From the sequence record NC_111505.1: a stretch of 64,000 bases of DNA. One strand, given 5' to 3'. How positions within the stretch are numbered: position 1 is the stretch's first letter; every line of letters begins with the position of its first letter. The translations under genes were made by a program, and so were the position numbers. Below the pieces are notes generated by a model. It had not been told where the DNA came from and made no database searches. It saw only the letters and a list, made by a program, of their open reading frames with translations. Positions 16,266-42,673 of the stretch are shown piece by piece. Source of the stretch: a phage.

Positions 16266-18248
16266 TTATTTGATGTTATTCTTTGTATCGATCAGTTCAC
16301 GGTATTCAATCATAGCAGGGGTGTCCCAATATTTCAAGCCTACATGCTTTAAAAGTGGATATTTCTTTTCCAATCTCGCAATATAGGCCTTCCCGCACTT
16401 AACTCGGTTGGCGATTAAGACTTTGGCACGATGATTCAGCTCACCGTACTTCCACGTGGTGCTACCTTCCCACTTGTGGAAATGTGGCCGATAATTTCCA
16501 AAATCCTGCATGGGTATAATTTTACCTAACTGTCTGTACAGGCTGTCATATGAAGTTTCATTTGCTGCGCGAGTCAGTAAGAATTTCCAAGCATCCTCTT
16601 TCAACAAATGTTCCACATTCTTCTCTGTAACATATTGGCAATCAGGATCAGTCCAAAGCAGACGAGATTCCGACACCAGGTACAGATCTTCCCCTTCAGG
16701 AATCTGGAGTGCCGCACGCACACGGTCATAATCTTGCTGGTAGATGTTACTCATCTGCCCTAGCCAACAACTTCCGCGTTGGATATCCCCCTCATACGGT
16801 ATGCAGTGCTTAATCTTCCTGAACTCTGCCTTAGTAATACGCTCACGCCGGAAGTAACCATCCTTCTCAAGTTTTTTAACCCAATAACCGGGCTCATAAC
16901 GAGTTTTTGTTTCACCTTTCTTCACAGGTCGGCGAGGAAGCTCTGATAACAATTTGACCGTATCTGCAAAGAACGGATGGTGTGCCACTTCTTTAAACTC
17001 TTTTACCAGATCCGTGTTCCGGCAATAGAAAACGTTGCGTCCGGTGATCTCGCTTAAGTAGTTACACTTATTTCGGTTATATTTACCGTCTCCGTCGTTA
17101 AATACTAGATAGACTCCTCGTAAGAATTCTACCTTTCCGTAACAAGCGTATCCTATGCGGCTTTTATTTAAGCCGCCTGCGAAGATCTCACAGTCCCCTA
17201 AATTCCCTAGTCCTGTTTCTTCCCACCGGTCATACATAAAATTCTTACCGAAGATGTGCCCGAACACTCCACTGTTCTTCATCATCTCGCGTGCTTCTGA
17301 GGATGTTTTTGCTGTCTCCAGTTCCGCAACAACTTCTGCTCCACGAAGACGGATACCTTCTTTGACAAAAGCTTCCAAACGCTCTTGGAATCCACCATCA
17401 TCGTGACCTTCTATGGTCCATTCACGTCCTGGGTTAATATTGCAGTCTCCGATAGGGATCTCTACACAAATTGCAGGATAATCTGTTAGTGTTTCCAGGA
17501 ACTTAGAACGGTAAGGTTGGTGACCCATTACCACACGACTCTCGTCAGAGCTGGTATAGCCCTTCAGGATGGTCATCTTCCAACCATCTTTTTCATAATA
17601 ATACTGCGCCTCTACTTTGTCTCCCTCCAGCATCTTGCTCGTCATCGGATCGGTGACAGTGAACGGAAATTTTGCATAGCGTAGACATGATGCAATAGCG
17701 GTGCGATATTTCAGAACATGCTCTTTCTTAACATGAAACTGAACTTTTACTCCATTGTGCTCTTCAGTCTTCCGCTCACGGATCTTGGTGACATTTGGGA
17801 TACCCTGGTCCAAGAACAATAGGTATGTGCTTTCCACACCATTGTGCACACTGATTACATCGAAAGTGTCCACCATGCTGAACGGGGCCTTTGAACCAAC
17901 ACCTTTATTGCCTACCAGATCGTTGCTGTTGCGCTTGGTTGACTCGCCGAGGTTCATGAAAGTGTTGCGGACCATCTCTTCTGACATACCGAGGCCAACG
18001 TCCTGCACAAAGAAGTATGGTTCAAGATCTGTAGGGGAGTGAATGATGATCGGAACATCACCACGTCCAGACTCAACATGAGAGTCCACAGCATTGAAGA
18101 TTGGTTCACGGCAGCTTGCCAGCACCTTATCTTCATAAATCCCTTTAATGATTAACCCAAAAGTTTCTTTGTTCAGAGAAATTGATCCCCTTGTTACCTC
18201 CAAATTCCCAGTTAGCACTGCTTTAGTTTCATTACTGTTTACAATCAT
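16266..18248 (-). CDS. GHKL-superfamily ATPase domain protein (MORC/Hsp90-like N-terminus) with uncharacterised C-terminal region
   Basis: N-box EPIFNAVDS; G1 box VQDVGLGM; G2 box GNKGVGSKAPF, in canonical order; about 450 aa of C-terminal sequence unassigned. Confidence 0.6.
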   Translation of the reverse strand: MIVNSNETKAVLTGNLEVTRGSISLNKETFGLIIKGIYEDKVLASCREPIFNAVDSHVESGRGDVPIIIHSPTDLEPYFFVQDVGLGMSEEMVRNTFMNLGESTKRNSNDLVGNKGVGSKAPFSMVDTFDVISVHNGVESTYLLFLDQGIPNVTKIRERKTEEHNGVKVQFHVKKEHVLKYRTAIASCLRYAKFPFTVTDPMTSKMLEGDKVEAQYYYEKDGWKMTILKGYTSSDESRVVMGHQPYRSKFLETLTDYPAICVEIPIGDCNINPGREWTIEGHDDGGFQERLEAFVKEGIRLRGAEVVAELETAKTSSEAREMMKNSGVFGHIFGKNFMYDRWEETGLGNLGDCEIFAGGLNKSRIGYACYGKVEFLRGVYLVFNDGDGKYNRNKCNYLSEITGRNVFYCRNTDLVKEFKEVAHHPFFADTVKLLSELPRRPVKKGETKTRYEPGYWVKKLEKDGYFRRERITKAEFRKIKHCIPYEGDIQRGSCWLGQMSNIYQQDYDRVRAALQIPEGEDLYLVSESRLLWTDPDCQYVTEKNVEHLLKEDAWKFLLTRAANETSYDSLYRQLGKIIPMQDFGNYRPHFHKWEGSTTWKYGELNHRAKVLIANRVKCGKAYIARLEKKYPLLKHVGLKYWDTPAMIEYRELIDTKNNIK

Positions 18249-18745
18249 TTATTGCGCTCCTTGTAGTAGATATGACTCCCGAATTGAGCTGTCCTCTGCA
18301 TCTTTTTTGCCCATTTCGGTCGTACTTTTGTTGTATGATAGTGTGTTGCTCCACCTGTTATATCCATAGCCATGTATGCAACATGGTTGTTATTATAGAC
18401 CTTTAGAAGCATCTTTGCAAGACTTTTAGCGTGATCCCATGAATCTTTTTCTGTCACCTTAAAAGTTTTGCCGTGGTTTGTCCACGAAAACTGGTTAGGT
18501 TGGTAGACAATCTTTCTTATAGTGTCTGGGTACTTAGGGTGAGATTTCCTGTTTAGTGTGGCAAACCCAGATGCCAACATACCCATCGTGCCATCTCCTC
18601 TGGCTTCCCTGTAGATATTGCATGCCAGAATGTTCTCCTTAGTATCCGATGGCTTGCAGGTGTGATATACTTTTTGTTTTGGTGCTGCAACAACAGGCAG
18701 CGATAAAAATGCGCTCAAAATAATAGCAAAGATTTTAATTTTCAC
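18245..18745 (-). CDS. secreted cell wall hydrolase, SleB/CwlJ-like; candidate endolysin
   Basis: N-terminal signal-like MKIKIFAIILSAFLSLPVVAAP; NIYREARGDG...GFATLNRK...YPDTIRKIVYQPNQFSW matches the Hydrolase_2 signature. Confidence 0.6.
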   Translation of the reverse strand: MKIKIFAIILSAFLSLPVVAAPKQKVYHTCKPSDTKENILACNIYREARGDGTMGMLASGFATLNRKSHPKYPDTIRKIVYQPNQFSWTNHGKTFKVTEKDSWDHAKSLAKMLLKVYNNNHVAYMAMDITGGATHYHTTKVRPKWAKKMQRTAQFGSHIYYKERNK

Positions 18746-29771: not shown

Positions 29772-32700
29772 TTAACGAGAAAAGGTTGCGTAGGCTTCTA
29801 GACGATACTGCTGGTCACCAGGGAACATAACACCTATAGAGGCTGTCCCTAGAATCCTGCCTTCCTTTCCAGACTCCATTCTGAACCCTACCCATCCTGA
29901 ACTCCTTGCAGCATCGATGTTGTCTCTATACCCGAAAGTGGCAAGATCGTCAACACCAGCCCCAAACAGCAACTGAAGCTGACTTCTCGGAAGCCCTATA
30001 ATTTCAGGAATATACGCACCAAAGTACACCATCTGCCCTACCTTAGGACCGCTGCCGTACTCCATCGGCTTGCTTGTAGAGAAAGTCTTCATACCAGAAG
30101 TCCCTGCCGGATTAGGATATGCCCCGTTTGTTGCTGTACCTATCCACATTCTCCACTGTGGTGCCATCTGTTTGACAGTAAAAGATGTTGAAGACGTTTT
30201 GCGCCCTGCATCATCTGTAACTACAAACTTTATAGTGACATTCCCAGTAGCTTTAAATGTTACCAGCCCTGTGGTAGCATCCACTGTTGCAATGTTGGTA
30301 TTACTACTTTCCCAAGTCTTTCTGATTCCTGGCACATTGGAAGGGGTAATAGAAGGTTCCTGCATCTGCAGTTTACCACCTACAATCCCTATCCCGTTTC
30401 CTGGATTATACAACGCACCAACCTCGTCTACAATGTTACCTGCCTTGAGGCTGTACTTTTTAGAGAAGTTGTAAGTGCCGTTATATGTGTGTGTCCCTGA
30501 GAAGGTTACATCTGCTTTTCCGTAAGAGATGCAAACCAAAGCATACTTCCTGTCAGGCAACGGTGCCCCAGTTTCTGGGTGAGTTTTACCCACCTGAAAC
30601 ACACTCGGGTCAGTGGAGTCTTGGCTATCACTAACTGAGTTTGGGCCACCCATCAGTTGTGACAAGCAATTCCTTACCCATGTCCAGTTATTATCGCTGG
30701 AGAAGTCCACAGTTAAATCAAACACAACCCACTCATTTGGCTTCCACACAGGTGTTGCAATGGACTTGCCTACACCGCCTCCTTGGAGTGTTGCCGACTG
30801 TTCAGTGATCAGGGCCGCGTAGGCCAGAGTTCCTAAACTCAGAGTTTGGCTTGCTGTCCTCACTACCTTAGAATCAGCATCTGTGAAGTTGTTGATGATC
30901 TGGAATGTGCCATAAGTGTTTTTACAGGTAATTCTGGCGTTCAGCGTGTCAATCTTCCTCACATCTGCCATAGCAGTGTTAGACACAGAGAAGTCAGAAG
31001 CTTTAGCTGAGTTTGCCGCAACAGCAGGATCAACGTTAAGAGTTGCGTTGAACTGACAAGCTGGGGTAACCAGCAGCTTGTTATCACCTATTTGCTTCCA
31101 TGAAACACTTTGAACAGGGAGATTCCATTTAATACCTGAGAAAACTTTAGCAACCCTTGGCCCCAGAGCTCCAGTCCTGGTGTCTTTACAGCACATGGAC
31201 ATGGTGATCGTTGACGGAGTGGCCTGACCAAACAATTGCTGTGCTTTTGCAGAGGACATGGTGTAGAAATTGTCCTTAACAAACTCATCAGCCGCCAATG
31301 ATCCGTCAGATCTCCACCATTGCACCTGGTACCCTGTCTTATCCCAGCCACCGACCTGCTTCAGGTCCTCCCAGGAGATTTCCAGATCCCCAGTGGTAGG
31401 GTTGATTGCAGCAGTTCCTGGTGTTCCAGAGGACCATAATGGGATATCGAACCATGCTGGTTTAACAGATTGTACTGCGTTCGGTCCTATTGCAGCAGCA
31501 AGTTGCTGACCCATCAACACACGAGAATCTTTTACCAAGCCCCATTCAATCATGGACCCAGAGTAGCCTTCTTTCTTATAGGCCGAAGATCCGTTCAAAT
31601 GGATAAGCCTGCTGCAGTCGAAACCATACGCCCCGCCACCGTTAGGATCTGCAAAGTTAGTTATGATTCTATCCCTTATATTTTTCCATGCCCTGCCTCC
31701 AATCTCGTAGTCATGGTCATAACATCTCTGCAGCGTTGTCCAGCAAATGATTGCCATTCTTCTGCCACCAGTAAACCCGAAAGCGCCGTCATTCAACTCT
31801 TTCCACAGATAGCAGTTAGTTGCCCACATAGCTCTGTGGATATTGAACCAGTTTATAGACTTAGCAGAATTGTCCCACTGAGTTCCCGGTAATTCAGGCC
31901 ACACTGCATTAACCAACATGTCTTCTGTTCCTGCATCAACTAAGAACCCTCTCACCTTTTTACCCATACCTGCCCTGTCTTTAGCAATCCAATTGCCAAA
32001 CAGTCTCAGTTTTGGACCATAAACGACATCCTCTGGGTGCTCAAAAGAAACATACTTTAAGTAGATTGTTGGGTCACCGTAGGTGCCATCACAAACACTT
32101 TTGTGCATGTTTTCGCCAAGATCTAGACGAAGCCCTGTCACCACTTTAGACGTGTCGGTGAATTTGTCTGTTAAATCAAATTCATACCACCACCATCCAC
32201 CACCAAGCATAAATTTCTTGCATCGAGCATTGTCTGTATCAGATATTCTCTTATCCCCTGCAAAAGGTGAATCAGCAAACTGATAATGCAGAGCAGTCTC
32301 GAATAAATGTGTTGAGGTTCCGTTTTCTGCAAGAACTTGCTTACCTATTAAGTCGCACTTAATGATCATCACAACACGTTTGTACCCGTTTGTTACTGGA
32401 ACTTGCATAGACATGGATGTCCCATCCATGTTTGATCTCAGCACGGTCATGACGATATAAGGGTCAACGGCATTGCCCAGAGTTTCAGGACCAGGGATTA
32501 TCTTGTACTTCTTAACCTGCCCCATAAACCTGTCACTGGCGTAAGTTGCAGCCTCGAAGCAAGATCCTCCATTAGGTAGTTCGCCAGGACCCCAGAAAAA
32601 TGCGCCATAACAGTTATAAAACCACTTGTTAGGATCGTATTTGTTCTTGAAGGTCTGAACCTCGTTAGCCTGTTTTGTCAAGAAAACCTGAGTATCTGTG

Positions 32701-34442
32701 AAGATTGCAGGATTCACTCTTGCCTGTCGATCAGCATATCCAGGTTGGTTAAACCACTGATTGCAAGAATAGTCCCGCATATAGTCATAATCAGAGTATT
32801 TATTGTTTGCATCCTCGTTCCAACACATATTAAGGTTGGTGCCGCCCATGCACACAATATATTCTTCAACGTATTTATCACTTCGGGTGGGAATACCTAC
32901 GAACCATCTATTAACAGGTTCGTTCCAAGCAGTACGCTCATCCTTAACGCAGATTGCAATCCAGTCATGTGTCCCTGTTTTCTTGCACACATCGCGCTTC
33001 ATACCGTAGTAGAATTCTTTAGTATTTGGCTCAGGTGCACTTATCAGGTAACTCCACGCCTGGTCTGCATATGTTCCGTTGGTGCGAGGGTCATGATCAA
33101 AGGCATACATGATGATTCTTTCTCCACCAAGATGTTCACCAAGGGTGACTTTGATGTTCACATCCCCGTAACCGTTGCGAACAACATCCATATTATCAAT
33201 AGAAATGCCTCTAGGAGTGTAGGCAATTTTCAGTGAGTTATCCTCACTAGTGCCACCAAGGGTGATCCCAATATTGTTTGTCGTCCCGTCAGCATATCTT
33301 ACTGTAGCTTCCCAGCGTATTCCGAAATATCCTACGTCATGGCTGACAATTTTTAATGTACGAGCACCAGAGTTAGGTTTTCCAGGATCAGGCCAAGGGT
33401 TTGGGTGTTCGTGAACCGTCAACGATGTCCCGTTTTGTTCGTTGACCTGCAACATTTTACCACCCCTTCCGTTTGGGTTGAACTCCCATAGGGCCTGTGT
33501 CTGCACCAAGTTATCATAGGTATTCCGTCGCTGACTATAAATCTCTTGGGTAACATCATAAGTTACTGATCCAGCATCCATTCTATGGAGTCTGACCATA
33601 TACGATGTATCCCCTTCTACTGCAGGCTGGGCCGCATTTAGTCCAAAGTATACAGTGTCATTAACATGGAACTGTTTGTTTCTACCGGCAGTATGCCATT
33701 TACCATCAGACGGATACGCCGGAACAATAGTGTTCCAGTTCAAAGTCCTTGTTGTGTGGGTCCTGCCTGTGCCATGTTTGTCATGATAGGTTATTTTTAC
33801 AGAGTACAGACCACGTCTGTTAACATTCCTGTTATACTGGGTAACAATAACTTCGTTGGCCCCACCGTGGTTCCAGTTAGTAGAGAATTGGTAATTCGCA
33901 TCTGTAACAACCGTGCCTGCAGCATTTACCAGTTCAATCTTGTCAATAATGAACGTAGCACCCTCTGGCTGAGGCTTTAATTTCATCTTGACCGTATCAC
34001 CAATGTAAATATTGCTAACGCTGCTAACACCGTTAACGTCGAAAATATCATCAACACCCCAACTGTCTACTGGGACATTTTTATACCAATTCTCAGGGAC
34101 CTCCGTGAACCCTTGGCTATTAAGTCTGCCGCCAAACAGGTTATTAGATCCTGCAAAACTTCCCCTCGGGATGCCTGACCACCAAAGTTTGCCATTAACA
34201 ACAGTAAAGGTTCCTAAAAAAACCTTCTCTGTGAATGCCTTGGAAATAAACACTTTCTGTCCAGCTAACTGGGAGGCGTTGCTCAACGTATTTGGCTGTG
34301 GCAAGAGCTTGATAGTGGATAAAATTGGCCCTAGGGCTATTGTTTGCAGATTGTGCGCCAATATCATTGCAAAGGTTGCGAGAGAATCCACGGTACTGCT
34401 TAGTACCATTGTTGAAGAAAATGCCACTTGTGCCGTACCCAC
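29772..34442 (-). CDS. giant tail-associated protein (1556 aa) with Ig-like (Big_2-type) domain; true 5' end uncertain
   Basis: longest ORF from track; C-terminal NIATVDATTGLVTFKATGNVTIKFVVTDDAG resembles bacterial Ig-like domain; first about 75 codons overlap the upstream ORF in another frame and look low-complexity. Confidence 0.55.
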   Translation of the reverse strand: MGTAQVAFSSTMVLSSTVDSLATFAMILAHNLQTIALGPILSTIKLLPQPNTLSNASQLAGQKVFISKAFTEKVFLGTFTVVNGKLWWSGIPRGSFAGSNNLFGGRLNSQGFTEVPENWYKNVPVDSWGVDDIFDVNGVSSVSNIYIGDTVKMKLKPQPEGATFIIDKIELVNAAGTVVTDANYQFSTNWNHGGANEVIVTQYNRNVNRRGLYSVKITYHDKHGTGRTHTTRTLNWNTIVPAYPSDGKWHTAGRNKQFHVNDTVYFGLNAAQPAVEGDTSYMVRLHRMDAGSVTYDVTQEIYSQRRNTYDNLVQTQALWEFNPNGRGGKMLQVNEQNGTSLTVHEHPNPWPDPGKPNSGARTLKIVSHDVGYFGIRWEATVRYADGTTNNIGITLGGTSEDNSLKIAYTPRGISIDNMDVVRNGYGDVNIKVTLGEHLGGERIIMYAFDHDPRTNGTYADQAWSYLISAPEPNTKEFYYGMKRDVCKKTGTHDWIAICVKDERTAWNEPVNRWFVGIPTRSDKYVEEYIVCMGGTNLNMCWNEDANNKYSDYDYMRDYSCNQWFNQPGYADRQARVNPAIFTDTQVFLTKQANEVQTFKNKYDPNKWFYNCYGAFFWGPGELPNGGSCFEAATYASDRFMGQVKKYKIIPGPETLGNAVDPYIVMTVLRSNMDGTSMSMQVPVTNGYKRVVMIIKCDLIGKQVLAENGTSTHLFETALHYQFADSPFAGDKRISDTDNARCKKFMLGGGWWWYEFDLTDKFTDTSKVVTGLRLDLGENMHKSVCDGTYGDPTIYLKYVSFEHPEDVVYGPKLRLFGNWIAKDRAGMGKKVRGFLVDAGTEDMLVNAVWPELPGTQWDNSAKSINWFNIHRAMWATNCYLWKELNDGAFGFTGGRRMAIICWTTLQRCYDHDYEIGGRAWKNIRDRIITNFADPNGGGAYGFDCSRLIHLNGSSAYKKEGYSGSMIEWGLVKDSRVLMGQQLAAAIGPNAVQSVKPAWFDIPLWSSGTPGTAAINPTTGDLEISWEDLKQVGGWDKTGYQVQWWRSDGSLAADEFVKDNFYTMSSAKAQQLFGQATPSTITMSMCCKDTRTGALGPRVAKVFSGIKWNLPVQSVSWKQIGDNKLLVTPACQFNATLNVDPAVAANSAKASDFSVSNTAMADVRKIDTLNARITCKNTYGTFQIINNFTDADSKVVRTASQTLSLGTLAYAALITEQSATLQGGGVGKSIATPVWKPNEWVVFDLTVDFSSDNNWTWVRNCLSQLMGGPNSVSDSQDSTDPSVFQVGKTHPETGAPLPDRKYALVCISYGKADVTFSGTHTYNGTYNFSKKYSLKAGNIVDEVGALYNPGNGIGIVGGKLQMQEPSITPSNVPGIRKTWESSNTNIATVDATTGLVTFKATGNVTIKFVVTDDAGRKTSSTSFTVKQMAPQWRMWIGTATNGAYPNPAGTSGMKTFSTSKPMEYGSGPKVGQMVYFGAYIPEIIGLPRSQLQLLFGAGVDDLATFGYRDNIDAARSSGWVGFRMESGKEGRILGTASIGVMFPGDQQYRLEAYATFSR

Positions 34443-35409
34443 GAGCCATTATTACCTCATGGGTGTAGGTGATATTCAAGGCACGCCATGTATCATCTCC
34501 CCAAACATCTTGCCCGTAGAATACGTTAACAAGTTGCTGGTCATCAGGTCTGTGCATTCTTTGTGTTACAACCACTGCCCCGTTCGGACCGCACATGAAC
34601 CCTTTCCACTCCTCATCTGTAGGAATGCCCCTCAAATCGTCACGGGTAATCTGAGCGGGGGGCCAAACGAGAGTGTTTCTACTATTGTTTCTCAGAAAGT
34701 CATATCCAGCAATCCAGAAACCTCTAGGACCACCGAAAATAACAGAGTTATCATGCACCTCACAGTTAATGCTTGGGTTTTTCCAAGGACCTGTTTCAGG
34801 ATTTTCCGATGTTTCACCAATCTTTACAGGGGTTGCATGCTGGTTTTTATCCACATGCAAAGACCCGTAGGTGTTGTTACCAGATCCGTACAAGTGTAAA
34901 ATGCCAGTGCCTTCTGCCTCTGCCATAACCCAGACGGTGTTGTTAATACCACCCATCACCTCAACAAGGCGCTCTGGGTGGGTGTCAAGGTGCAATCCTT
35001 TAACGATTTGTTCAGGAAGAGGTGTCCACTCCCTTACACAAACATCATTACCGCCTGCAGCATCAGACCCAATAAGCCCTGCAGTACAGCCGATGTAGAA
35101 AAACTGATTATCAAAAGTTCGGATCACAAACGCACGGTCTGCTCTCCACACATGATCAACGTTCCAGGCAGCCTCATTAGGGTAGTTTATCGTGTCAAGA
35201 TCCCCAGTCCTACACTCCCCGAACCTGTTGTACCCTGTGATATTAAGCTGACCATTGTCAAAAAGTATAGCTAAGCTATTTACATAGGCTACTGTAGTGC
35301 TTGTACCGTCACTGTTGTCTATTGGGTATGACAGAACAGCAAGTTCCTTAACTCCACCCCTCTTATCGAGGAAATGACGACCAAGTTTTAGCAAAGGGAT
35401 TGGAAGCAT
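34195..35409 (-). CDS. beta-propeller-like protein (RCC1-like repeats); possibly the N-terminal part of the downstream giant protein
   Basis: repeated aromatic/Gly motifs (YGSGNNTYGSLHVD, FYIGCTAGLIGSD); C-terminus overlaps the giant ORF by 248 nt. Confidence 0.5.
   Translation of the reverse strand: MLPIPLLKLGRHFLDKRGGVKELAVLSYPIDNSDGTSTTVAYVNSLAILFDNGQLNITGYNRFGECRTGDLDTINYPNEAAWNVDHVWRADRAFVIRTFDNQFFYIGCTAGLIGSDAAGGNDVCVREWTPLPEQIVKGLHLDTHPERLVEVMGGINNTVWVMAEAEGTGILHLYGSGNNTYGSLHVDKNQHATPVKIGETSENPETGPWKNPSINCEVHDNSVIFGGPRGFWIAGYDFLRNNSRNTLVWPPAQITRDDLRGIPTDEEWKGFMCGPNGAVVVTQRMHRPDDQQLVNVFYGQDVWGDDTWRALNITYTHEVIMARGYGTSGIFFNNGTKQYRGFSRNLCNDIGAQSANNSPRANFIHYQALATAKYVEQRLPVSWTESVYFQGIHREGFFRNLYCC
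34216..34222 (-). other. T7 homopolymer at the frame junction between ORF 34195..35409 and ORF 29772..34442
   Basis: minus strand GAAGG-TTTTTTT-AGGAAC about 20 nt before the upstream stop; removing one T joins ...IHREGF to LGTFTVVNGKLWWSG... as one ORF of about 1880 aa. Confidence 0.5.
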
Positions 35410-35430
35410 TGTGTTCTCCAGATAAGAAAA

Positions 35431-35449
35431 CCGCCCCGTCAGGAGCGGT
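35431..35449 (-). terminator. hairpin with U-run (attenuator or terminator)
   Basis: minus strand CCGCUCC-UGAC-GGGGCGG + UUUUCUUAUCU after the fibre gene. Confidence 0.35.
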
Positions 35450-35457
35450 CAGATATA

Positions 35458-37203
35458 TTAACGTTGTGCAATAACCACATCCACAATATCACCAACACCA
35501 CAATATGTCAATTGTAGCAAGGTAACGCTGTTGGCTTTGTTGTTAATGACAGGGGTAGCCGACAGTATGGCATATTTATCGTGCAAAGTCACGTTGTGGC
35601 CTACAGCATCTTGAATGACATAGATGATTGCAGTAAACGGGTAAGGTTTATCTTCAGCCGATGTTCCAGGCCATTGGCCTATTGTAAAATCCCCTTTCGC
35701 GTGGACAACATACATACTGGCCTGCCCGTTAGGTGTCCATGTCCCACTCGATGCTTCAACCTCCTCTAAGTCAAAGTCTACTTTTCCTGCGTGGAAAGTA
35801 GGGGCAGTGATGGTTTTACCAGCCTCAATTCCTTGAGAGGTGGTTATCTTACCGCTGGAGTTAATACCATTACAAACAAAGTTGACATTAGAGAAGTCTG
35901 GTAGCCACCCAGTCACTGTGCCGGATATTTCAAGGTTATGAAGGCGTGTTGTTCCTGTGCCGTTGTCATTTAAGCTAACATCGCCATTTACCTGCAAGTT
36001 CCTGGTAACGTTGCAGTTTTCAGAGTTTGCAGTCGTTGCAGTTAAAGTAGTGGTTGTCAGCTCGGTAATTACACCTTTGTTGGCTGTAAGTCCCTCTCCT
36101 TCAAAAGTTGCACGCTCATTGACTCTTAGGGTATTCAGAGATATGTTTTGGATAGATGCTGTACCTCGAATAACTACAGATCCGCCAACCTCTAAATCGC
36201 CATTGATCAGTGCATCCCCCGTGCTTTCAATATAGCTAGGGTAGATCATGGTGCCATCTACAGAGTAGGTTATCCCTGTAACGGTACCTGTCACCTCAAG
36301 GTTCTTAACCCTGGTGGTCCCAGCAACCTGTAATGTTGGTTCGGTTGCTGCCTTCATGGCATTACCACGGATGTACACGTAGTCAAAAAAGTTATTACCC
36401 AGACCATCAAAATGTACATCGTTATTATTAGCCACCGGTTTCCCAGAAGTTATAGTGTCAGCTATAACCCTGTGGGTGGACACTTCATGGGGTTGCAGCT
36501 CTGTACTTCTCCAGTCTGCATGCTTAGGATCGCTCCACGCAAAAGTAAGTGTAGAAGTATTTGCCGTGAGGATTAGATTCCTAAAGCGTGCAGTAGAATC
36601 TGCTCCATTAACAGGCCCATGTAAGGTGAGTGTGCCCCCAACTATGGTGTTAGCAAGTTCTGTAAGACCTTTTACCACCAAAGACCCTACAGTAACCTTC
36701 ATCCCCTCCATAGCTTTAAATATGCTATCCACATAGTCCACAACAAACTCTGTGTTTGCTATAGACTCGGACTTATCGTCCATTGGAGGTGTAGGTACTC
36801 GCGGGTCACCTTCGAATCTTGGGCTGTTAAGTTTTGCGTAGTATTTTGCCATTACTGCAGAATCGGTATATAATCTCCAGTTCGGAGATTGTGAAGGATC
36901 TGCTGGCATCCTAACCGGGTTAGATTTTGATGCTGCTGGGGCGTACCACCACTGAGGGCCTGTATCCCCTTTAAACTCATACAACTGGTTAAAAACTGTT
37001 GTGGATGCACCATACGCCCAAGGGATTGGTGGCGTTTTAAAATAAAGGGTGTCAAGCATGGCTTTTCGTACCGTAGGGATGGTGGTCCCATCCTCTACGA
37101 CAACTTCATCCACAGCGTTACCGTTGACAATCAGGTGCAAACGTTCAGAATCAACAATTACTTGATCTACCGCCTGCTCAAAGCTTGTCATGTCTTGCGC
37201 CAT
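35458..37203 (-). CDS. tail fibre protein
   Basis: 581 aa; G/T/N/V-rich beta-helix-like repeats (NLEVTGTVTGITYSVDG, NLEISGTVTG). Confidence 0.5.
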   Translation of the reverse strand: MAQDMTSFEQAVDQVIVDSERLHLIVNGNAVDEVVVEDGTTIPTVRKAMLDTLYFKTPPIPWAYGASTTVFNQLYEFKGDTGPQWWYAPAASKSNPVRMPADPSQSPNWRLYTDSAVMAKYYAKLNSPRFEGDPRVPTPPMDDKSESIANTEFVVDYVDSIFKAMEGMKVTVGSLVVKGLTELANTIVGGTLTLHGPVNGADSTARFRNLILTANTSTLTFAWSDPKHADWRSTELQPHEVSTHRVIADTITSGKPVANNNDVHFDGLGNNFFDYVYIRGNAMKAATEPTLQVAGTTRVKNLEVTGTVTGITYSVDGTMIYPSYIESTGDALINGDLEVGGSVVIRGTASIQNISLNTLRVNERATFEGEGLTANKGVITELTTTTLTATTANSENCNVTRNLQVNGDVSLNDNGTGTTRLHNLEISGTVTGWLPDFSNVNFVCNGINSSGKITTSQGIEAGKTITAPTFHAGKVDFDLEEVEASSGTWTPNGQASMYVVHAKGDFTIGQWPGTSAEDKPYPFTAIIYVIQDAVGHNVTLHDKYAILSATPVINNKANSVTLLQLTYCGVGDIVDVVIAQR

Positions 37204-37212
37204 GATTTCTCC

Positions 37213-37479
37213 TTAAGCTTTTTGCTCTTCGTTTTTAACGTGGTCAGGGTGCTGGCAACCCCACCGGAGCGAGATGAATTTGCTAATAAGCTGGGGGCAA
37301 GCTACTGAAGGTGCGTATATCCACGCATACCATTCAGGAAGCGTATCATTGTACCCCATATGAATAAACACCCCAGTCATCACTGCCATGCCTATGTTTG
37401 ACCATAGCTTAGATTGGGACACTTTTGTAGGGTCATCAGATGCTGCAACCAGTCCCCATAAAAACTGAGTTAATTTCAT
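37213..37479 (-). CDS. small membrane protein
   Basis: 88 aa with hydrophobic segment WSNIGMAVMTGVFIHMG. Confidence 0.4.
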   Translation of the reverse strand: MKLTQFLWGLVAASDDPTKVSQSKLWSNIGMAVMTGVFIHMGYNDTLPEWYAWIYAPSVACPQLISKFISLRWGCQHPDHVKNEEQKA

Positions 37480-37488
37480 TTACCCTCT

Positions 37489-38535
37489 TTAAGCATAAGA
37501 TATGGTGATCCATTGACCGTTTACAAATTTTTGAATAGCTCCAGTCCAATAGTCTCCCTGATACGGGTGTTTATATGCGTAATTGCCGGAGCACATTACA
37601 TGCCCGGGGTATACTCTTGACTCTCTGTAGGTGGTTCTGAAACGGTTTGCTATCCTTACATCTTCAACACCCCTACTAGGCATAGGGATAGTAAGGTTAC
37701 CACTACTGTCTGCGCTACTACCATTTACCCTGCGGACCACGTTTCTTCCACCAACTGTTGCATATTGACCTCTGGCGGTTTTATCGTTACAATCTACTCT
37801 TCCACCTATTTGAGCGCTGCCGCAGGATTGTTGCCCATTAACAGTGGATCTGGGTATCGTTACCGCATTAGCATTTGCAGAGGAGCTTTTTGCATCATTG
37901 CATTCAAGATTTCCTTGGATAGCCAGTCTTGCACGGTTGGCAGTTATAGCATTGAGCTTCATAGCCGAAAACACAGGCTGCCCACCAGAAGGTTGAAATC
38001 TCCAACGGAAACCGTCTATTTGGTGAGAGGGATCATCAAGGTCTGTGCCGTCAGCACCACCGATGTTGTCCATAATCCAGAAATCCATCATCGTCTTGTC
38101 TGGAGTTATGGTGGTGTATATCGCCGCACTATCTGTTGACGCGGATGCAAACTCGATTCTTTGAAGACCTAAAGTTTGAGTCTGGATCATTGTGTCTCCA
38201 GCCTTGTCAACATAAAGGTCATCCATTTCTTCAGGCGAGTATACATTAAGAACTTGACGTGCAGCAGCTTTGTCTGGAACGTCTGCCAGATTATTAGTGA
38301 CCCTTAAGAATCTATTATCCCATCCTGGGACAACATCTTCTGTTAAATGCTTTAACCACGCAGAGAGCATATTAAGTTCAAAGTTAACAACTTCACATGC
38401 CACTCTTTGTGTCATATCCCAACCTTTCAATCTCTCTTCTTTTTTTGGTTGGGACTTATTCAATTCTCCCGTATTTTCAAGCACAACATCCTGATTGGCC
38501 CAAATATCAAGAGGGATAACTGGTTTAGTCATCAC
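37489..38535 (-). CDS. tail fibre protein, paralog B
   Basis: 348 aa; shares N-terminal P-L-x-I-W-A and C-terminal K-x-VNGQWIT-x-x-YA with 39548..40588. Confidence 0.6.
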   Translation of the reverse strand: MMTKPVIPLDIWANQDVVLENTGELNKSQPKKEERLKGWDMTQRVACEVVNFELNMLSAWLKHLTEDVVPGWDNRFLRVTNNLADVPDKAAARQVLNVYSPEEMDDLYVDKAGDTMIQTQTLGLQRIEFASASTDSAAIYTTITPDKTMMDFWIMDNIGGADGTDLDDPSHQIDGFRWRFQPSGGQPVFSAMKLNAITANRARLAIQGNLECNDAKSSSANANAVTIPRSTVNGQQSCGSAQIGGRVDCNDKTARGQYATVGGRNVVRRVNGSSADSSGNLTIPMPSRGVEDVRIANRFRTTYRESRVYPGHVMCSGNYAYKHPYQGDYWTGAIQKFVNGQWITISYA

Positions 38536-38622
38536 GTTCTCCTGAGAAAATTCCTTAAGGACTATTTTAACACTTTAGAGAACAAAATGCAAGAACGGCA
38601 TCCTTGCCGTTCTGACCTTTGT

Positions 38623-38937
38623 TTACCTTTTACTATGCTCTACAAGCATGTGTAAAATCTTTTGCACATCGGCTCTGATACCGGAGACATCTGTCCTGAC
38701 ATCTTGCTTAAGGTCGTTAATATCGGCCTCTAGCTTACTTAACCGGGTCTCAATAATGGAATCAAGTCTATCTTTTGTAACCATGCTATTTTTCACTAAA
38801 ATGAGGTCTTTCTCCAGCTCATCCAGCCTCTTGGAAATGCCTTTCCATTTGGTGTGCCACTGGTTGAAAGCCCATACACAGATCGGGACAACGGTACCCA
38901 TGCAGATACCGTACAGTGCCGCCAAATCCAACTCCAC
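38623..38937 (-). CDS. membrane-anchored coiled-coil protein
   Basis: 104 aa; N-terminal hydrophobic segment then heptad-like region (LDELEKDLILVKN...LEADINDLKQDV). Confidence 0.4.
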   Translation of the reverse strand: MELDLAALYGICMGTVVPICVWAFNQWHTKWKGISKRLDELEKDLILVKNSMVTKDRLDSIIETRLSKLEADINDLKQDVRTDVSGIRADVQKILHMLVEHSKR

Positions 38938-38948
38938 AACACCTCCTC

Positions 38949-39533
38949 TTAGAGGGTAGGTCGTTCCGGGAAGAAAATGTCAGGGGCTTTAGATGTATCT
39001 ATGTCAAGAAGTTTTACCCTGTACATTTTCAAATCTCTGATGTTGCGTTTTTGGTCATCAGTGAGATCGTATTCAAGGTCAATCATGTCTTGATAGGCAC
39101 CAATTCTAGCAGTAGCCCAAGCAAGTTCTGTCTCTATGACACCCTCTGCCTGTTGAACAAAGAATTCATTGTCTGTGACAAATTCATCACCAACTAAACG
39201 CAAAGCGTCGTGGTGGAGCATAATGTTTTCTGGTACCTCTTCTTTTTTGGCGATAACCACACGAAGACCTGGAGCAGGCCACAAGGCATCGGGTTCTTCT
39301 GTAGATGTCTTAAGAATACCCTTCTCGTCAACAAGTAGGAAGATACAACCCGGATTTTCTTGTCGTAATGTTCGTGATTGCACATACCAATCGCCATCAT
39401 CATTACGTAAAAAATATCCAGTGTATGCCGTATAATCCTCAACCTCCTGAGGAGTCAGCTCCTTGGTACCTTTGTTGGTGTGGTATTCGCCAGATCCCGG
39501 TTGGTAAAGCTTAAACTCTTGAAGTATTTTCAT
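38949..39533 (-). CDS. tfa: tail fibre assembly protein (lambda Tfa-like)
   Basis: 194 aa; C-terminal YRVKLLDIDTSKAPDIFFPERP resembles my recollection of the lambda Tfa C-terminus ([22 protein letters not shown]); follows a fibre gene. Confidence 0.6.
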   Translation of the reverse strand: MKILQEFKLYQPGSGEYHTNKGTKELTPQEVEDYTAYTGYFLRNDDGDWYVQSRTLRQENPGCIFLLVDEKGILKTSTEEPDALWPAPGLRVVIAKKEEVPENIMLHHDALRLVGDEFVTDNEFFVQQAEGVIETELAWATARIGAYQDMIDLEYDLTDDQKRNIRDLKMYRVKLLDIDTSKAPDIFFPERPTL

Positions 39534-39547
39534 GCTAGTCCTCCGAT

Positions 39548-40588
39548 CTACGCATAATTAACAGTGATCCATTGACCATTTACAAGTTTCTGTAAAGGCC
39601 CTGCCCAGTAGGTTGAACCACGCATCTCTTTTTTATCACCAAAATGCCAACCTGTGACAACGTAGCCGTTGCGAACTGGAGATTCAGAAACACCATCAAC
39701 AAGTCTTGCGCCGATTCTGATATCCTGTACACCTGTCTGCGGGATGGTGATCGTTACATCTCCGTTGCCGTTAGCCGTCACTCCATTCACAGAGCGCACC
39801 ACATTTCTGTTACCGACAACACAATGCTGGCTTCTTACAACCATACTGTCACAACTTGCACCTCCATTGACATATACTGACCCAGCCGTCAACTGACTAG
39901 CTACATTGCAGTTGGTGAATGTTGCTGCGCTGCTAATGGTGAGGCTATTACATCGCATGTTATCAACAACTTCAACATTGCCCACCACTTTCAACAACGC
40001 ACGATTAGCCGTGATCGCGTTCAGGTACATCAGGGTGAACTCTGGGTTAATGTCCGGCTGAGTTGGCTGGAATCTCCAACGGAACGCATCTACTGTGGAG
40101 GTGCCGCCATCATCAAACGCCCCAACATTATCACTTAACCCAAAGTCGAGAGTTGTCTTATCTGGGCCAATAGTTGTCTCTATCCAAGCCTTATCTGTAT
40201 CGGCAGCTTTAAAGTTGATACGTTGCAAACCCAATGGGCCTGTCATTGTATCACCTGTAACTTTCACATACCTGGCGTCTGCCTCTTCCTTAGTAATAAT
40301 ACCAAGGTTTCTACGGGCAACAGGGATGTTCAAAAGATCACTCAAGTTATTATCACGTACCAGATAACGGCCTTCTTGAGCGGGGATCTGCTCGTCAGCA
40401 ATGTATTTTGCCCAAGTCCCGAGCATATTGAAAATATAGTTAAGTTCTTCACAAGATGGCTTTTGACCAAGATCCCAACCTTTTCTCCACAAATCATCAA
40501 TCGGGCGTAGCCTGTTCTGTCTGTGGGTGTTAGGCAGAACCTGATCCTCCTCTGCCCAAATCTCTAATGGAAAACTAGGTTTTGACAT
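39548..40588 (-). CDS. tail fibre protein, paralog A
   Basis: 346 aa; paralog of 37489..38535; followed by the Tfa-like chaperone. Confidence 0.6.
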   Translation of the reverse strand: MSKPSFPLEIWAEEDQVLPNTHRQNRLRPIDDLWRKGWDLGQKPSCEELNYIFNMLGTWAKYIADEQIPAQEGRYLVRDNNLSDLLNIPVARRNLGIITKEEADARYVKVTGDTMTGPLGLQRINFKAADTDKAWIETTIGPDKTTLDFGLSDNVGAFDDGGTSTVDAFRWRFQPTQPDINPEFTLMYLNAITANRALLKVVGNVEVVDNMRCNSLTISSAATFTNCNVASQLTAGSVYVNGGASCDSMVVRSQHCVVGNRNVVRSVNGVTANGNGDVTITIPQTGVQDIRIGARLVDGVSESPVRNGYVVTGWHFGDKKEMRGSTYWAGPLQKLVNGQWITVNYA

Positions 40589-40600
40589 TTTATCTCCTGA

Positions 40601-42673
40601 TTATGAGAAGTCTGGCGGGACAACATCTTCTACATACCCTTTCAGAGCAACCTGCCCCATATGAAGCACGGTAGAATCTCTGGCGGTAACAGTGATGCTG
40701 TCAGACATTACTTGCGGGTATGCCCACACATACTGTTTTACCTCAGGGTATCTATACTCTATGGTTGCCATGTTTCCGCAAATACATCTCCATAAAAATT
40801 CTTGGTAATTCCTGGTTGGGTCGTAGCCATATACCGGAGCAAGCTCTTTGCTAGGAACGAACCCTGCAAGGTATTGTATTTCAGACGGTTGCCAACCTAA
40901 CTTAACGATAGGTATGTTTACAGACTCTTTTGCCTTTTCAATACCACCCTGCATCACCCAATCGTAGCACTCAGTGCAGAAGAAATCAAGAGCACCTGCT
41001 TCCTTTTTATATTGGTCAGCAAGGTTCAGCTTTTGCGTAAGCTCGGTTTCCATAATGGTCGGGAAAAACAGCAAAGCTGTCATCTGAGCCGATGCAGCGT
41101 GTGCTTTTATTGCCTTTGAAATAGCTGCAATACGAGCGCCAAGCTTACCACGACAAAATGCTACATACTTGTCATAAACACCGCCAGTTTTAGGATCGTC
41201 AATAGTCCCAATGTCTAGGGCATATTCACCAGTCTCATCATAAAACGCCTGTTTTGTAGGGTAGTCATAAATACAAGGTCTACGAGTATCGGTATTGTAC
41301 CACCACCACGGTTCACCAACCTGCATAATCACTGGCAGGTTGTTTCTCATAGCGGCTGATGCAAAATTCTTAAATACTGCAGTAAGGAAATTCATACCCT
41401 CTTCAATGGTTGGAGACAGGAGGTAACTACAAGGTGTATATCCTGTTTTAGCGTAGTTATCGTTCCAGTCTCTTTGGGTCCATTCCAACGGACAGGCATC
41501 GCTGAAAAGCTCAAAGCTTACAGACTGCATAACGTCGAAGTCATGTCGTTTGGCATTGTACATAAAGTCATCATGCCATTTATAAGCTGCAGCGTTTAGA
41601 GCCCCTGTTCTGTTTATAGACCATTGAGTTCCGGACCATGTGTAATCATAATAATGGCTCATACCAACATAATGGTTTATGGTTCCGGTATAGCCTAGAC
41701 GCTTGATATTGCTCAACACCCTTAAAGGAGATACGTTCCACATATCGTCATATGCTGTGCAGATCCCAACGTCGTGCTCTTTCACCTGGATATTGTTAAG
41801 TTGCATCATCTTCCAGCCTGTGTCCGGCTGAAGCAGATCTAGACGCAACTCGCACTCTACATTTTCCGTTCTTGGGTCTGTGCTATTACTTACCCAATCT
41901 TTAGGCATAAGTGGTATTAAAATCCTTCTCACCTGCCGAGGATCAACACCCATCATGTTGTTGTTCTGGTCCATCCCGACGCAGTCCTCGAAATCAATAT
42001 GAATTTCTGCAACATTCTTATCCTCTGAGATGCTGACAGCATATTGAGCTAAAGGAACATAGATGATTGTGCCGTCAACAAGGTCTACAGTCATAATCAT
42101 CTTTTCAGGGGTGGAGAAGTTGCTGGCATTAGTTATTGACATTCTGAACCAAAGCTTGGTGTTTCTCATCTCATAGTGATCATCAAATCCAATGCCGAAA
42201 TGGTCATACTTGTCAACTGTTTCCCAAATGCACCCAGCCATGCCGCCATATGTTCTTGACACTAAACGGTTAATACAGCAGTTATTATCCGCAACAATAC
42301 AGGTGCTTTCAGTTTGCTGTGTGGTTGTAACCCAATATCTTGGGTGAAACATTCTCTCCTCAACGGTATCCCAAGATATTCTGTCAAGATTCTCATCTGA
42401 AACTATTGTACATTTCGCTCTTTGTGTTCCAATCATAACCCCTTGGGAGTTTGATGAAAACTCCATAAAGAAGCTTCTTGGCAACCTGTTTGGCAATTTG
42501 TCAACAATTTCTACAGGGATCTCAATACTGGTTGCCCCAACCGGGATAGTTACATCTCCCTCAACATGATCATAATCTCTACCTGGAACTGCAGTATCCT
42601 GAACTGTGCGGTAATGAAACCGTGCAGCCATCGTAGAGTAATCACGGTAAGGTTTAAAAACAGCTGTTGCCAT
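40601..42673 (-). CDS. tail or baseplate-associated protein with Calx-beta-like N-terminal motif
   Basis: 690 aa; DTAVPGRDYDHVEGDVTIPVGATSIEIPVEIVDK resembles Calx-beta; W/Y-rich C-terminal region. Confidence 0.4.
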   Translation of the reverse strand: MATAVFKPYRDYSTMAARFHYRTVQDTAVPGRDYDHVEGDVTIPVGATSIEIPVEIVDKLPNRLPRSFFMEFSSNSQGVMIGTQRAKCTIVSDENLDRISWDTVEERMFHPRYWVTTTQQTESTCIVADNNCCINRLVSRTYGGMAGCIWETVDKYDHFGIGFDDHYEMRNTKLWFRMSITNASNFSTPEKMIMTVDLVDGTIIYVPLAQYAVSISEDKNVAEIHIDFEDCVGMDQNNNMMGVDPRQVRRILIPLMPKDWVSNSTDPRTENVECELRLDLLQPDTGWKMMQLNNIQVKEHDVGICTAYDDMWNVSPLRVLSNIKRLGYTGTINHYVGMSHYYDYTWSGTQWSINRTGALNAAAYKWHDDFMYNAKRHDFDVMQSVSFELFSDACPLEWTQRDWNDNYAKTGYTPCSYLLSPTIEEGMNFLTAVFKNFASAAMRNNLPVIMQVGEPWWWYNTDTRRPCIYDYPTKQAFYDETGEYALDIGTIDDPKTGGVYDKYVAFCRGKLGARIAAISKAIKAHAASAQMTALLFFPTIMETELTQKLNLADQYKKEAGALDFFCTECYDWVMQGGIEKAKESVNIPIVKLGWQPSEIQYLAGFVPSKELAPVYGYDPTRNYQEFLWRCICGNMATIEYRYPEVKQYVWAYPQVMSDSITVTARDSTVLHMGQVALKGYVEDVVPPDFS

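Follow-up and report, generated by a model that had tools for sequence, protein, structure and literature searches.

Two small membrane proteins encoded in the tail fibre cluster of a Vequintavirus are candidate lysis proteins

We analysed a 64,000-nt stretch of phage DNA (sequence record NC_111505.1; hereafter the window), focusing on two small genes within its tail fibre cluster that encode proteins of 88 and 104 amino acids (aa), the counterparts of gp29 and gp31 of phage rV5. An earlier note, made from the sequence alone, had suggested lysis, fibre assembly or superinfection exclusion as their roles. We hold with moderate confidence that both genes encode late inner-membrane proteins acting in host lysis, rather than in fibre function, because their relatives in Mu-like phages sit in the cell-lysis gene cluster. 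From sequence comparison, the 88-aa protein is best read as a holin-type protein and the 104-aa protein as its putative membrane-tethered accessory. Measured against the libraries and papers searched, the assignment of both families to lysis appears to be new, the existing labels being 'membrane protein', 'lipoprotein', 'hypothetical' and 'structural protein'; the kind of protein and arrangement concerned (holins, accessory lysis proteins, dispersed lysis genes) is known.

One genome per bacterial species was scanned with a conserved sub-alignment of the 88-aa family, which yielded 32 loci in Neisseriaceae, Burkholderiales and Nitrosomonadales, all of them (32/32) Mu-like prophage regions. A hidden Markov model (HMM) built from Vequintavirus-clade sequences only matched exactly one open reading frame (ORF) in each of the 32 loci (E = 2e-11 to 7e-5) and no other among their 3312 ORFs. 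The three matched prophage ORFs that were tested all match phrog_1322 (E = 1e-21 to 1e-26). The 88-aa protein belongs to this family by a full-length match (E = 2.7e-32, residues 1-87 against profile positions 1-86/87), and all 41 of its aligned relatives match the family too. An endolysin gene lies 0-254 nt upstream of the family ORF in at least 20 of the 32 loci, and a Rz1-type lipobox or lipoprotein ORF lies downstream in 27. The neighbouring endolysins belong to four Pfam classes (GH108 with PG_binding_3, Amidase_2, CHAP and Phage_lysozyme). Further along come a DksA-like zinc-finger gene (in some loci), a protein with a transmembrane (TM) segment plus helix, a gp26-like gene, the small and large terminase genes and the portal gene, an order that equals the layout of Mu genes 22-28.

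The isolated Mu-like phages RS138 and Bise share the order late activator, endolysin, family member and Rz, with the Bise endolysin representing a fifth class (Peptidase_M15_4). Several cassette endolysins have no export signal, those of Ralstonia phage RS138 and Pseudomonas phage Bise among them. In both phages (ORF27 in RS138), and in a Neisseria sicca locus (L061), the cassette has no small membrane protein besides the family member, as would be expected of the holin. The position of the 88-aa relatives, after the endolysin and ahead of the spanin genes, is a lysis-cassette position typical of holins.

The TM-plus-helix ORF of these cassettes occupies the slot of Mu gp25, the releasin, and it is here that relatives of the 104-aa protein were found. 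With an HMM of the 104-aa family, the ORF of this slot ranked top among the 3312 ORFs in ~26 loci (E = 0.0015-0.5), and the i-spanins of the same 32 loci, alike in gross architecture, were unmatched. Profile comparison by hhalign of the gp31 family with the gp25-slot proteins (each of two subtypes and the union of both, all phrog_462) gave a probability of 89-92% (E about 1e-6), against 0.2-1.9% for five i-spanins from the same prophages, used as a control. The alignment covered 76-90 columns, nearly the full length, for each subtype and 52 for the union. Column shuffles that kept the TM block gave 19.9 ± 2.1 (maximum 24.8), against 37.0 for the real alignment. These comparisons point to a probable remote homology between the 104-aa family and the gp25-slot proteins; membership of DUF2730, the family of Mu gp25, is not claimed, since the Pfam DUF2730 model misses the family.

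Mu gp25 itself is an N-out/C-in tethered cytoplasmic protein needed for release of the signal-anchor-release (SAR) endolysin, and the gp25 slot holds clearly distinct families, often together with non-SAR endolysins (PMC9239132). In some Mu-like cassettes, we found proteins of the reverse layout in this slot, with a coiled coil at the N terminus and a Gly/Ala-rich TM segment at the C terminus, resembling XhlA (L042 7799-8161; L044 2746-3189; L074 4520-4741, which is RS138 ORF30). The slot thus appears to take several unrelated membrane-tethered helical proteins.

The family profile of the 88-aa protein (41 sequences) has two uncharged stretches, residues 25-43 and 51-66. Conserved basic residues (K19 and K24) stand ahead of the first, a short acidic loop lies between them (E49 in 66% of sequences), and near-invariant K67 and R72 follow the second, before a polar charged tail. 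Kyte-Doolittle hydropathy peaks near 1.0 at residues 25-43 and 53-71, and AlphaFold2 run on the family alignment placed helices at 22-43 and 49-73, kinked at P62, with a predicted local distance difference test score (pLDDT) of 77.6 overall and 84-90 in the core. On the profile and the model, the one hydrophobic segment described by the earlier note gives way to two uncharged helical segments. The protein is predicted to form a two-helix membrane hairpin with both ends in the cytoplasm (N-in/C-in), and would thereby combine the small size, TM domain and charged hydrophilic C terminus of holins.

Among known families, the 88-aa protein matched no holin family in Pfam, NCBIfam or PHROGs, and a Foldseek search of its model against BFVD returned family members only, besides non-significant holin and antiholin hits (E > 1). 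It had no match to Pfam DUF2644 (PF10841) at E ≤ 0.1; weak DUF2644 matches occur in 3 of the 41 relatives at E ≤ 0.01 and among precomputed 'weak' hits, and our literature search found no paper mentioning DUF2644. Pfam, NCBIfam and PADLOC scans of both small proteins gave no meaningful family, returning coiled-coil noise only (XhlA, EzrA, JetC).

Near the N terminus of the 104-aa protein, about residues 5-25 form a clear hydrophobic helix (Kyte-Doolittle 1.9), complete only with the GTG start. Its N terminus is acidic (E2, D4; net charge -2, family mean -1.2), and basic residues (K30, K32, K36 and R37) follow the helix. Some 75 residues remain, predicted to lie in two long helices; the AlphaFold2 model, of low confidence (pLDDT 64), has helices at 3-51 and 55-103, broken at a conserved V-T-K motif. 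Given the acidic N terminus and the basic residues behind the helix, the positive-inside tendency predicts an N-out/C-in topology, the opposite of an i-spanin, with the helical domain (net charge +2) in the cytoplasm.

The source phage is a Vequintavirus. The closest matches to region 35400-40700, in which every gene lies on the minus strand, include E. coli phage FV3 (96.8%); over 100 rV5-like E. coli phages match the region at 94-97% identity. The range 37213-38937 comprises both small ORFs and the short-fibre gene between them. The ends given for the two ORFs in the earlier note hold, and their neighbours are indeed fibre and fibre-assembly genes. In transcription order, the features are:

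40601-42673, minus strand: 690-aa protein (rV5 gp34) combining Calx-beta with non-contractile-tail-sheath TIM-barrel domains
39548-40588, minus strand: 346-aa short fibre (rV5 gp33)
38949-39533, minus strand: tail fibre assembly chaperone of 194 aa (rV5 gp32), directly upstream of the 104-aa gene; Pfam Caudo_TAP, E = 1.5e-11
38623-38937, minus strand: 104-aa protein (rV5 gp31), ORF with GTG start; phrog_5345, E = 1e-48
38592-38613, minus strand: terminator-like hairpin immediately behind the 104-aa stop codon; 9-bp stem (5 GC pairs) and T-rich tail
38548-38585, minus strand: putative late promoter (rV5 P030) in an 87-nt gap; ttgttctctaaagtgttaaaatagtcc... matches Table S4 of PMC3606486
37489-38535, minus strand: 348-aa short tail fibre (rV5 gp30); phrog_4465, E = 2e-163; synteny with PVP-SE1 and CB7
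37213-37479, minus strand: 88-aa protein (rV5 gp29), ORF with ATG start; phrog_1322, E = 2.7e-32
35458-37203, minus strand: 581-aa fibre (rV5 gp28)
35429-35450, minus strand: terminator-like hairpin (rV5 t028), listed in Table S4 of PMC3606486
After gp28 in transcription order, minus strand: giant Ig-like fibre (rV5 gp27, 1878 aa)

Both ORFs are real genes and not chance ORFs. The 88-aa ORF begins with ATG behind the Shine-Dalgarno sequence AAAGAGGG, and the 104-aa ORF begins with GTG, preceded by AAGAGGAGG with a strong AGGAGG Shine-Dalgarno motif. Across 114 phage records the 88-aa protein is 95-100% identical, whereas the surrounding 5.3 kb of DNA is just 90-95% identical in most, which indicates that the genes are under selection. 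An exhaustive HMMER search gave 72 homologous clusters for the 88-aa protein, and a profile search gave 118 homologues of the 104-aa protein, almost all 104-114 aa long. In RefSeq FV3 the annotated start of the 104-aa gene is an internal ATG, giving a 92-aa product (FV3_00031, locus L001 7800-8078). This shorter form loses the N-terminal part (window 38902-38937) and with it half of the TM helix; the 104-aa form is in use in rV5 and in the BASEL phage EmilHeitz. We take the long form as real because its first 12 residues form half of the hydrophobic helix and are conserved in PVP-SE1 gp44, which is 33% identical over all 104 residues, N terminus included.

Each genome examined, from at least five genera in two subfamilies, has both genes, as do Aeromonas, Pseudomonas and metagenomic relatives, with syntenic conservation among rV5-, PVP-SE1-, phiTE/CB7- and phi92-like phages. 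The 88-aa orthologues are rV5 gp29, phi92 gp144, PVP-SE1 gp42 and CB7_35; those of the 104-aa protein are rV5 gp31, phi92 gp149, PVP-SE1 gp44 and CB7_33. In PVP-SE1 the order is fibre gp46, Tfa gp45, gp44 (the gp31 homologue), gp43 (four TM segments), gp42 (the gp29 homologue) and fibre gp41. CB7 (CB7_31 to CB7_36) and phiTE have the same order, as does the metagenomic locus L040, and Aeromonas phage 2L372X is similar. In phi92-like phages (muut, Paula, REC), Pseudomonas phage PsgM04F and the metagenomic loci L035 and L037, the gp29 homologue directly precedes the wedge gene, and the gp31 homologue follows a fibre-chaperone pair or a fibre gene alone. The two families co-occur in rV5, PVP-SE1, CB7, phi92-like, Pseudomonas and Aeromonas phages and in L035, L037 and L040, as well as in the Mu-like cassettes.

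The 'lipoprotein' label attached to phi92 gp149 and to phrog_462/15210 was rejected, as no lipobox cysteine occurs in the gp31-family sequences examined (the window protein, PVP-SE1, CB7, muut, PsgM04F and 2L372X). A further small protein, of 152-157 aa with four annotated TM segments, lies between the two genes in Seunavirus, Certrevirus, Mydovirus and relatives (110 records; precomputed Pfam PF26221 'Phage_phiTE_239', phrog_7451), for example at L004 5500-5973 (PVP-SE1 gp43), L008 7592-8050 (CB7_34) and L040 6330-6788. No rV5-like phage is among the matches listed (best 30 of 110 records), the protein is absent at the corresponding position in phi92-like phages, and in rV5-like phages the duplicated short fibre gp30 takes its slot. 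As it appears absent from rV5-like and phi92-like genomes, we set it aside, for this phage, as the cluster's real holin; it is possibly a member of the same functional set as the two small genes. A weak phrog_1322-like tblastn match (E = 6e-4) in Stenotrophomonas phage Moby (locus L076 5001-5195) was disregarded, being an unannotated ORF on the strand opposite to the annotated genes. It sits in the DNA-replication cluster of Menderavirus phages and may be a missed small gene or a chance match.

Three observations concern the surrounding region. The 690-aa protein, besides its Calx-beta domain, matches 'non-contractile tail sheath protein' families in both their N-terminal domain and their TIM barrel (E = 3.5e-80); it is labelled hypothetical in FV3 and, in BASEL, a lateral fibre with glycosidase/deacetylase domains. 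In the giant Ig-like fibre gene, a run of seven T at 34216-34222 (minus strand; six T in FV3) shifts the frame and splits the gene into ORFs of 404 aa (34195-35409) and 1556 aa (29772-34442). No retrieved locus, EmilHeitz included, has the seven-T version. It could stem from a sequencing error in the homopolymer, be a genuine frameshift (inactivating or phase-variable), or mark a slippage site. Finally, 16 GenBank 'Campylobacter phage' records (host C. jejuni; for example MG065655, MG065644 and MG065690) match the Vequintavirus region of the window, the six listed being ~94.5% identical to it. Hosts may have been mis-assigned in that data set, or coliphages may have contaminated it.

The predicted transcription signals are consistent with late expression. 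Two predicted elements, a match to the rV5 late promoter P030 and the terminator t028, bracket the stretch that contains the 88-aa gene, and a gp30-gp29-gp28 unit would be driven by the putative promoter and end at the t028 hairpin. The hairpin at 38592-38613 closes the wedge-fibre-chaperone-gp31 transcription unit. Both small genes are thereby placed in predicted late units.

Other lysis genes are scattered in this phage. A SleB-like cell-wall hydrolase, annotated as endolysin in FV3, is encoded at 18245-18745 (minus strand) with an N-terminal Sec-type signal, MKIKIFAIILSAFLSLPVVAAPKQ, and a signal peptide and toxicity have been reported for its CB7 homologue (PMC7344957). The hydrolase stop overlaps the start of rIIA (16266-18248, minus strand) by 4 nt; with the Sec-type N terminus, this suggests an exported endolysin translationally coupled to a lysis-inhibition-type gene. 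The earlier remark that no holin is obvious beside this hydrolase holds, its flanks being rIIA and a gene for an acidic, soluble 126-aa protein. Outside the window, rV5-type phages encode an Rz/Rz1 pair adjoining the terminase (PMC7344957; rV5 gp66/gp67) and a lysozyme (rV5 gp89). No accepted holin is known for Vequintavirinae (PMC9862379) and none was found by the KPP-1 authors; the only proposal for rV5, gp129, came from TM prediction alone.

Neither small protein has been seen in a virion, on evidence that comes from the literature on orthologues rather than from this isolate. Mass spectrometry of CB7 virions (26 proteins) detected CB7_29, 30, 31, 36 and 37 and none of CB7_32-35 (PMC7344957), and the rV5 table, a shallow data set, lists no gp29 or gp31 peptide. 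Neither protein is included in the phiTE baseplate model (nine proteins) or the phi92 model, the phi92 2026 and phiTE 2025 structure papers do not mention either gene product, and Protein Data Bank (PDB) sequence searches with both returned no phage protein. Most likely, both proteins are not built into the virion.

We propose that the 88-aa protein would insert as an N-in/C-in helical hairpin and accumulate during late gene expression. Acting like a holin, it would permeabilise or depolarise the cytoplasmic membrane, whereby the cytoplasmic muramidase could reach the wall, the Sec-exported SleB-like hydrolase, one likely enzyme partner, could be activated, or both. The separately encoded Rz/Rz1 spanins would then complete lysis. 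The 104-aa protein, tethered by its N-terminal helix with its helical domain in the cytoplasm, may modulate this step by analogy with the gp25-slot proteins, either aiding endolysin release or regulating the holin. The analysis shows that the genes are real and conserved, that they are placed in predicted late units, what architecture is predicted for their products, that these are missing from virion proteomes, and that homologues have a lysis-cassette context; we infer hole formation, the topologies, the partnership of the two proteins and the endolysin served. That two unrelated families travel together in two very different phage lineages, and that the lineage with clustered lysis genes has both in its cassette, argues for lysis. 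A wider proposal, tentative and open to doubt, is that the gp29 and gp31 families form a conserved two-component lysis-timing module, made up of a holin-type hairpin and a releasin-like cytoplasmic partner tethered to the membrane, common to transposable Mu-like temperate phages and large rV5/phi92-type virulent myoviruses, which in the latter would have been absorbed into baseplate and fibre operons.

Several points weigh against a lysis role. The hydrophobicity of the 88-aa helices is weak (Kyte-Doolittle about 1.0-1.5), and the TMHMM/Phobius scan of the rV5 authors lists no TM domain for gp29. The 88-aa gene lies ~19 kb from the SleB-like hydrolase, inside the baseplate/fibre module, so the adjoining endolysin or spanin gene of many holins is missing in the window and is seen in its homologues in the 32 loci, RS138 and Bise. 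Such linkage is common and not obligatory, as T4 t illustrates. We infer the holin role of phrog_1322 in Mu-like cassettes from position, and two loci (L048 and L063) have an additional small membrane ORF between the endolysin and the family member, so that the latter could there be an antiholin or another regulator. PHROGs files phrog_1322 under 'moron, auxiliary metabolic gene and host takeover'. As for the 104-aa protein, the match of about 90% comes from small alignments (3-14 sequences) of compositionally simple TM-plus-helix proteins, and against true Mu gp25 relatives hhalign gave just 16-70% depending on settings (15.8% with -M first, 69.7% with -M 50, for seven diverse DUF2730 proteins gathered by tblastn, Mu gp25 included). 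Neither the 104-aa protein nor five orthologues matched Pfam DUF2730 (PF10805) at E ≤ 0.1, with Mu gp25 as positive control at E = 2.5e-13. The literature searched yielded no experiment on any member of either family. Finally, gene order is stable: in phi92-like phages the wedge gene comes straight after the 88-aa gene, and the 104-aa gene invariably stands behind a fibre gene, whether or not a chaperone gene accompanies the latter. A role in assembly could explain this synteny equally well.

Assembly is the strongest of the other explanations, unlikely as we think it. Anchored in the membrane and absent from the virion, the two would assist in building the baseplate and fibres: the 104-aa protein would help the adjacent trimeric fibres to fold or dock, in the manner of T4 gp57A for gp12, gp34 and gp37, or else alongside the Caudo_TAP chaperone, and the 88-aa protein would help wedge or baseplate assembly at the membrane. 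Besides the constant place of the gp31 family behind a fibre gene, with or without Tfa, and of the gp29 family before the wedge gene in phi92-like phages, PsgM04F, L035 and L037, both proteins are missing from virions, as is the chaperone CB7_32, and the fibres beside the genes are gp12-like short fibres by HHpred (PMC3606486). In Mu-like phages, nevertheless, the endolysin-spanin-terminase region is where homologues of both families occur, a long way from the tail genes. No similarity to chaperone families was found in Pfam, NCBIfam or PHROGs; neither protein matches Caudo_TAP (PF02413) or related PHROGs, and the neighbouring 194-aa gene does. Moreover, the 88-aa gene precedes the wedge gene in some lineages and follows fibre genes in others, a variation that speaks against its being tied to a single structural partner.

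Small inner-membrane proteins encoded beside fibre genes also have precedents in superinfection exclusion: T5 llp lies beside oad, cor lies downstream of lambdoid tail genes, and P2 Z/fun follows G. By this account, for which the PHROGs category of phrog_1322 also speaks, the two would be exclusion or membrane-immunity proteins beside receptor-binding genes, like Cor, Llp or T4 Imm and Sp, that block DNA entry of related phages. We consider it improbable. Both genes are universal among the genomes examined, from at least five genera, and not patchy like morons; they lie in predicted late transcription units; and their homologues lie in the late lysis operon of temperate Mu-like phages, silent in lysogens. 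PADLOC gave no match for the 88-aa protein and one of coiled-coil type only for the 104-aa protein (JetC, E = 0.006), Cor, Llp, Imm and Sp not having been compared directly. Fibre assembly and exclusion are both less consistent with the contexts of the homologues than lysis is.

It is very unlikely that one or both proteins are minor virion components, such as small baseplate or fibre-joint proteins, that have so far been missed. The records of Paula, PD06 and REC, all phi92-like, do call the gp144 homologue a 'structural protein', and phi92 fibre II and parts of its fibre network remain unassigned, but the CB7 and rV5 mass spectrometry, the phiTE and phi92 atomic models and the PDB searches described above, the membrane-hairpin features and the lysis-cassette homologues all speak against it.

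The earlier note had, finally, named i-spanin-like genes among its options. That the 104-aa protein would be an i-spanin of the Rz kind, and that both proteins would serve to disrupt the envelope, is hardly credible: an N-terminal TM helix with helical or coiled-coil sequence is the gross i-spanin architecture, and a weak PHROG match to an Rz-like spanin (E about 1e-3) was seen for one prophage relative of the slot family, but Rz/Rz1 are already present beside the terminase in rV5-type phages, no lipobox ORF that could encode a lipoprotein partner lies within or adjoining 38623-38937, neither PHROGs nor Pfam gave an Rz match, profile similarity is 0.2-1.9% to the five i-spanins against ~90% to gp25-slot proteins, the 104-aa relatives in prophage cassettes coexist with a separate Rz/Rz1 pair, and the charge distribution predicts a cytoplasmic C-terminal domain. 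The lysis option of that note thus gains from the comparative context, with 88-aa relatives between endolysin and spanin genes, and sheds its i-spanin component.

A lysis role would matter beyond this window. Phages of the rV5, PVP-SE1 and phi92 types feature widely in collections for therapy and biocontrol, and their lysis system is incomplete, with endolysins and spanins known and an accepted holin not. The two proteins are a concrete, testable candidate pair for this long-noted gap; if the proposal is true, a two-component module would supply the missing holin of Vequintavirinae and Stephanstirmvirinae and extend releasin-type regulation past transposable phages and SAR endolysins. The bioinformatic rule that phrog_1322 lies between endolysin and Rz genes in Mu-like cassettes would improve annotation in hundreds of genomes where 'membrane protein' or 'hypothetical' is the present label, and could enable engineering of lysis timing. 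It would also bear on the releasin question in Mu, namely the role of the diverse TM-plus-helix gp25-slot proteins when the endolysin is not SAR.

Set beside known systems, the two families differ from each model in some respects. Both labels nearest to the 88-aa protein, phrog_1322 'membrane protein' and DUF2644, are uncharacterised. Like T4 gp57A and the Caudo_TAP chaperones, the window proteins are small, helical and non-virion and are encoded with fibre genes; they share no sequence similarity with them, and the chaperones are soluble, whereas the window proteins have predicted membrane helices and lysis-cassette relatives. With lambda Rz-type i-spanins the 104-aa protein shares an N-terminal TM helix and a helical domain, but it is shorter, has no o-spanin partner, shows noise-level profile similarity and has the opposite predicted topology.

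The 104-aa protein resembles the Mu gp25 releasin (DUF2730, PF10805; PMC9239132) in its length of ~100 aa, N-terminal TM domain, predicted N-out/C-in topology and helical cytoplasmic domain. Its nearest relatives occupy the gp25 slot, after Rz/Rz1 and before the gp26-like gene and small terminase, and the window phage, like Mu, also has a membrane-targeted hydrolase, here with a Sec signal. Unlike gp25, however, the 104-aa protein has a cytoplasmic domain that is not net anionic (+2), its gene lies more than five genes from any endolysin in the window phage, and DUF2730 is reported in transposable phages only. The N terminus of the window hydrolase looks like a cleavable signal and has no Gly/Ala-rich SAR domain, in which it differs from the Mu SAR endolysin.

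The 88-aa protein resembles class II holins and pinholins (phage 21 S68, T7 gp17.5) in being a small, predicted late protein with two predicted helices and both termini inside, with basic residues before helix 1, an acidic loop (E49) and a charged C-terminal tail, and with relatives that adjoin endolysin and spanin genes. It differs from them in having no sequence match to holin families and a hydrophobicity weaker than that of most. The T4 holin T has one TM domain and a large periplasmic domain, and its gene t lies directly after fibre genes 37-38; like t, the 88-aa gene is found among fibre genes, away from the endolysin.

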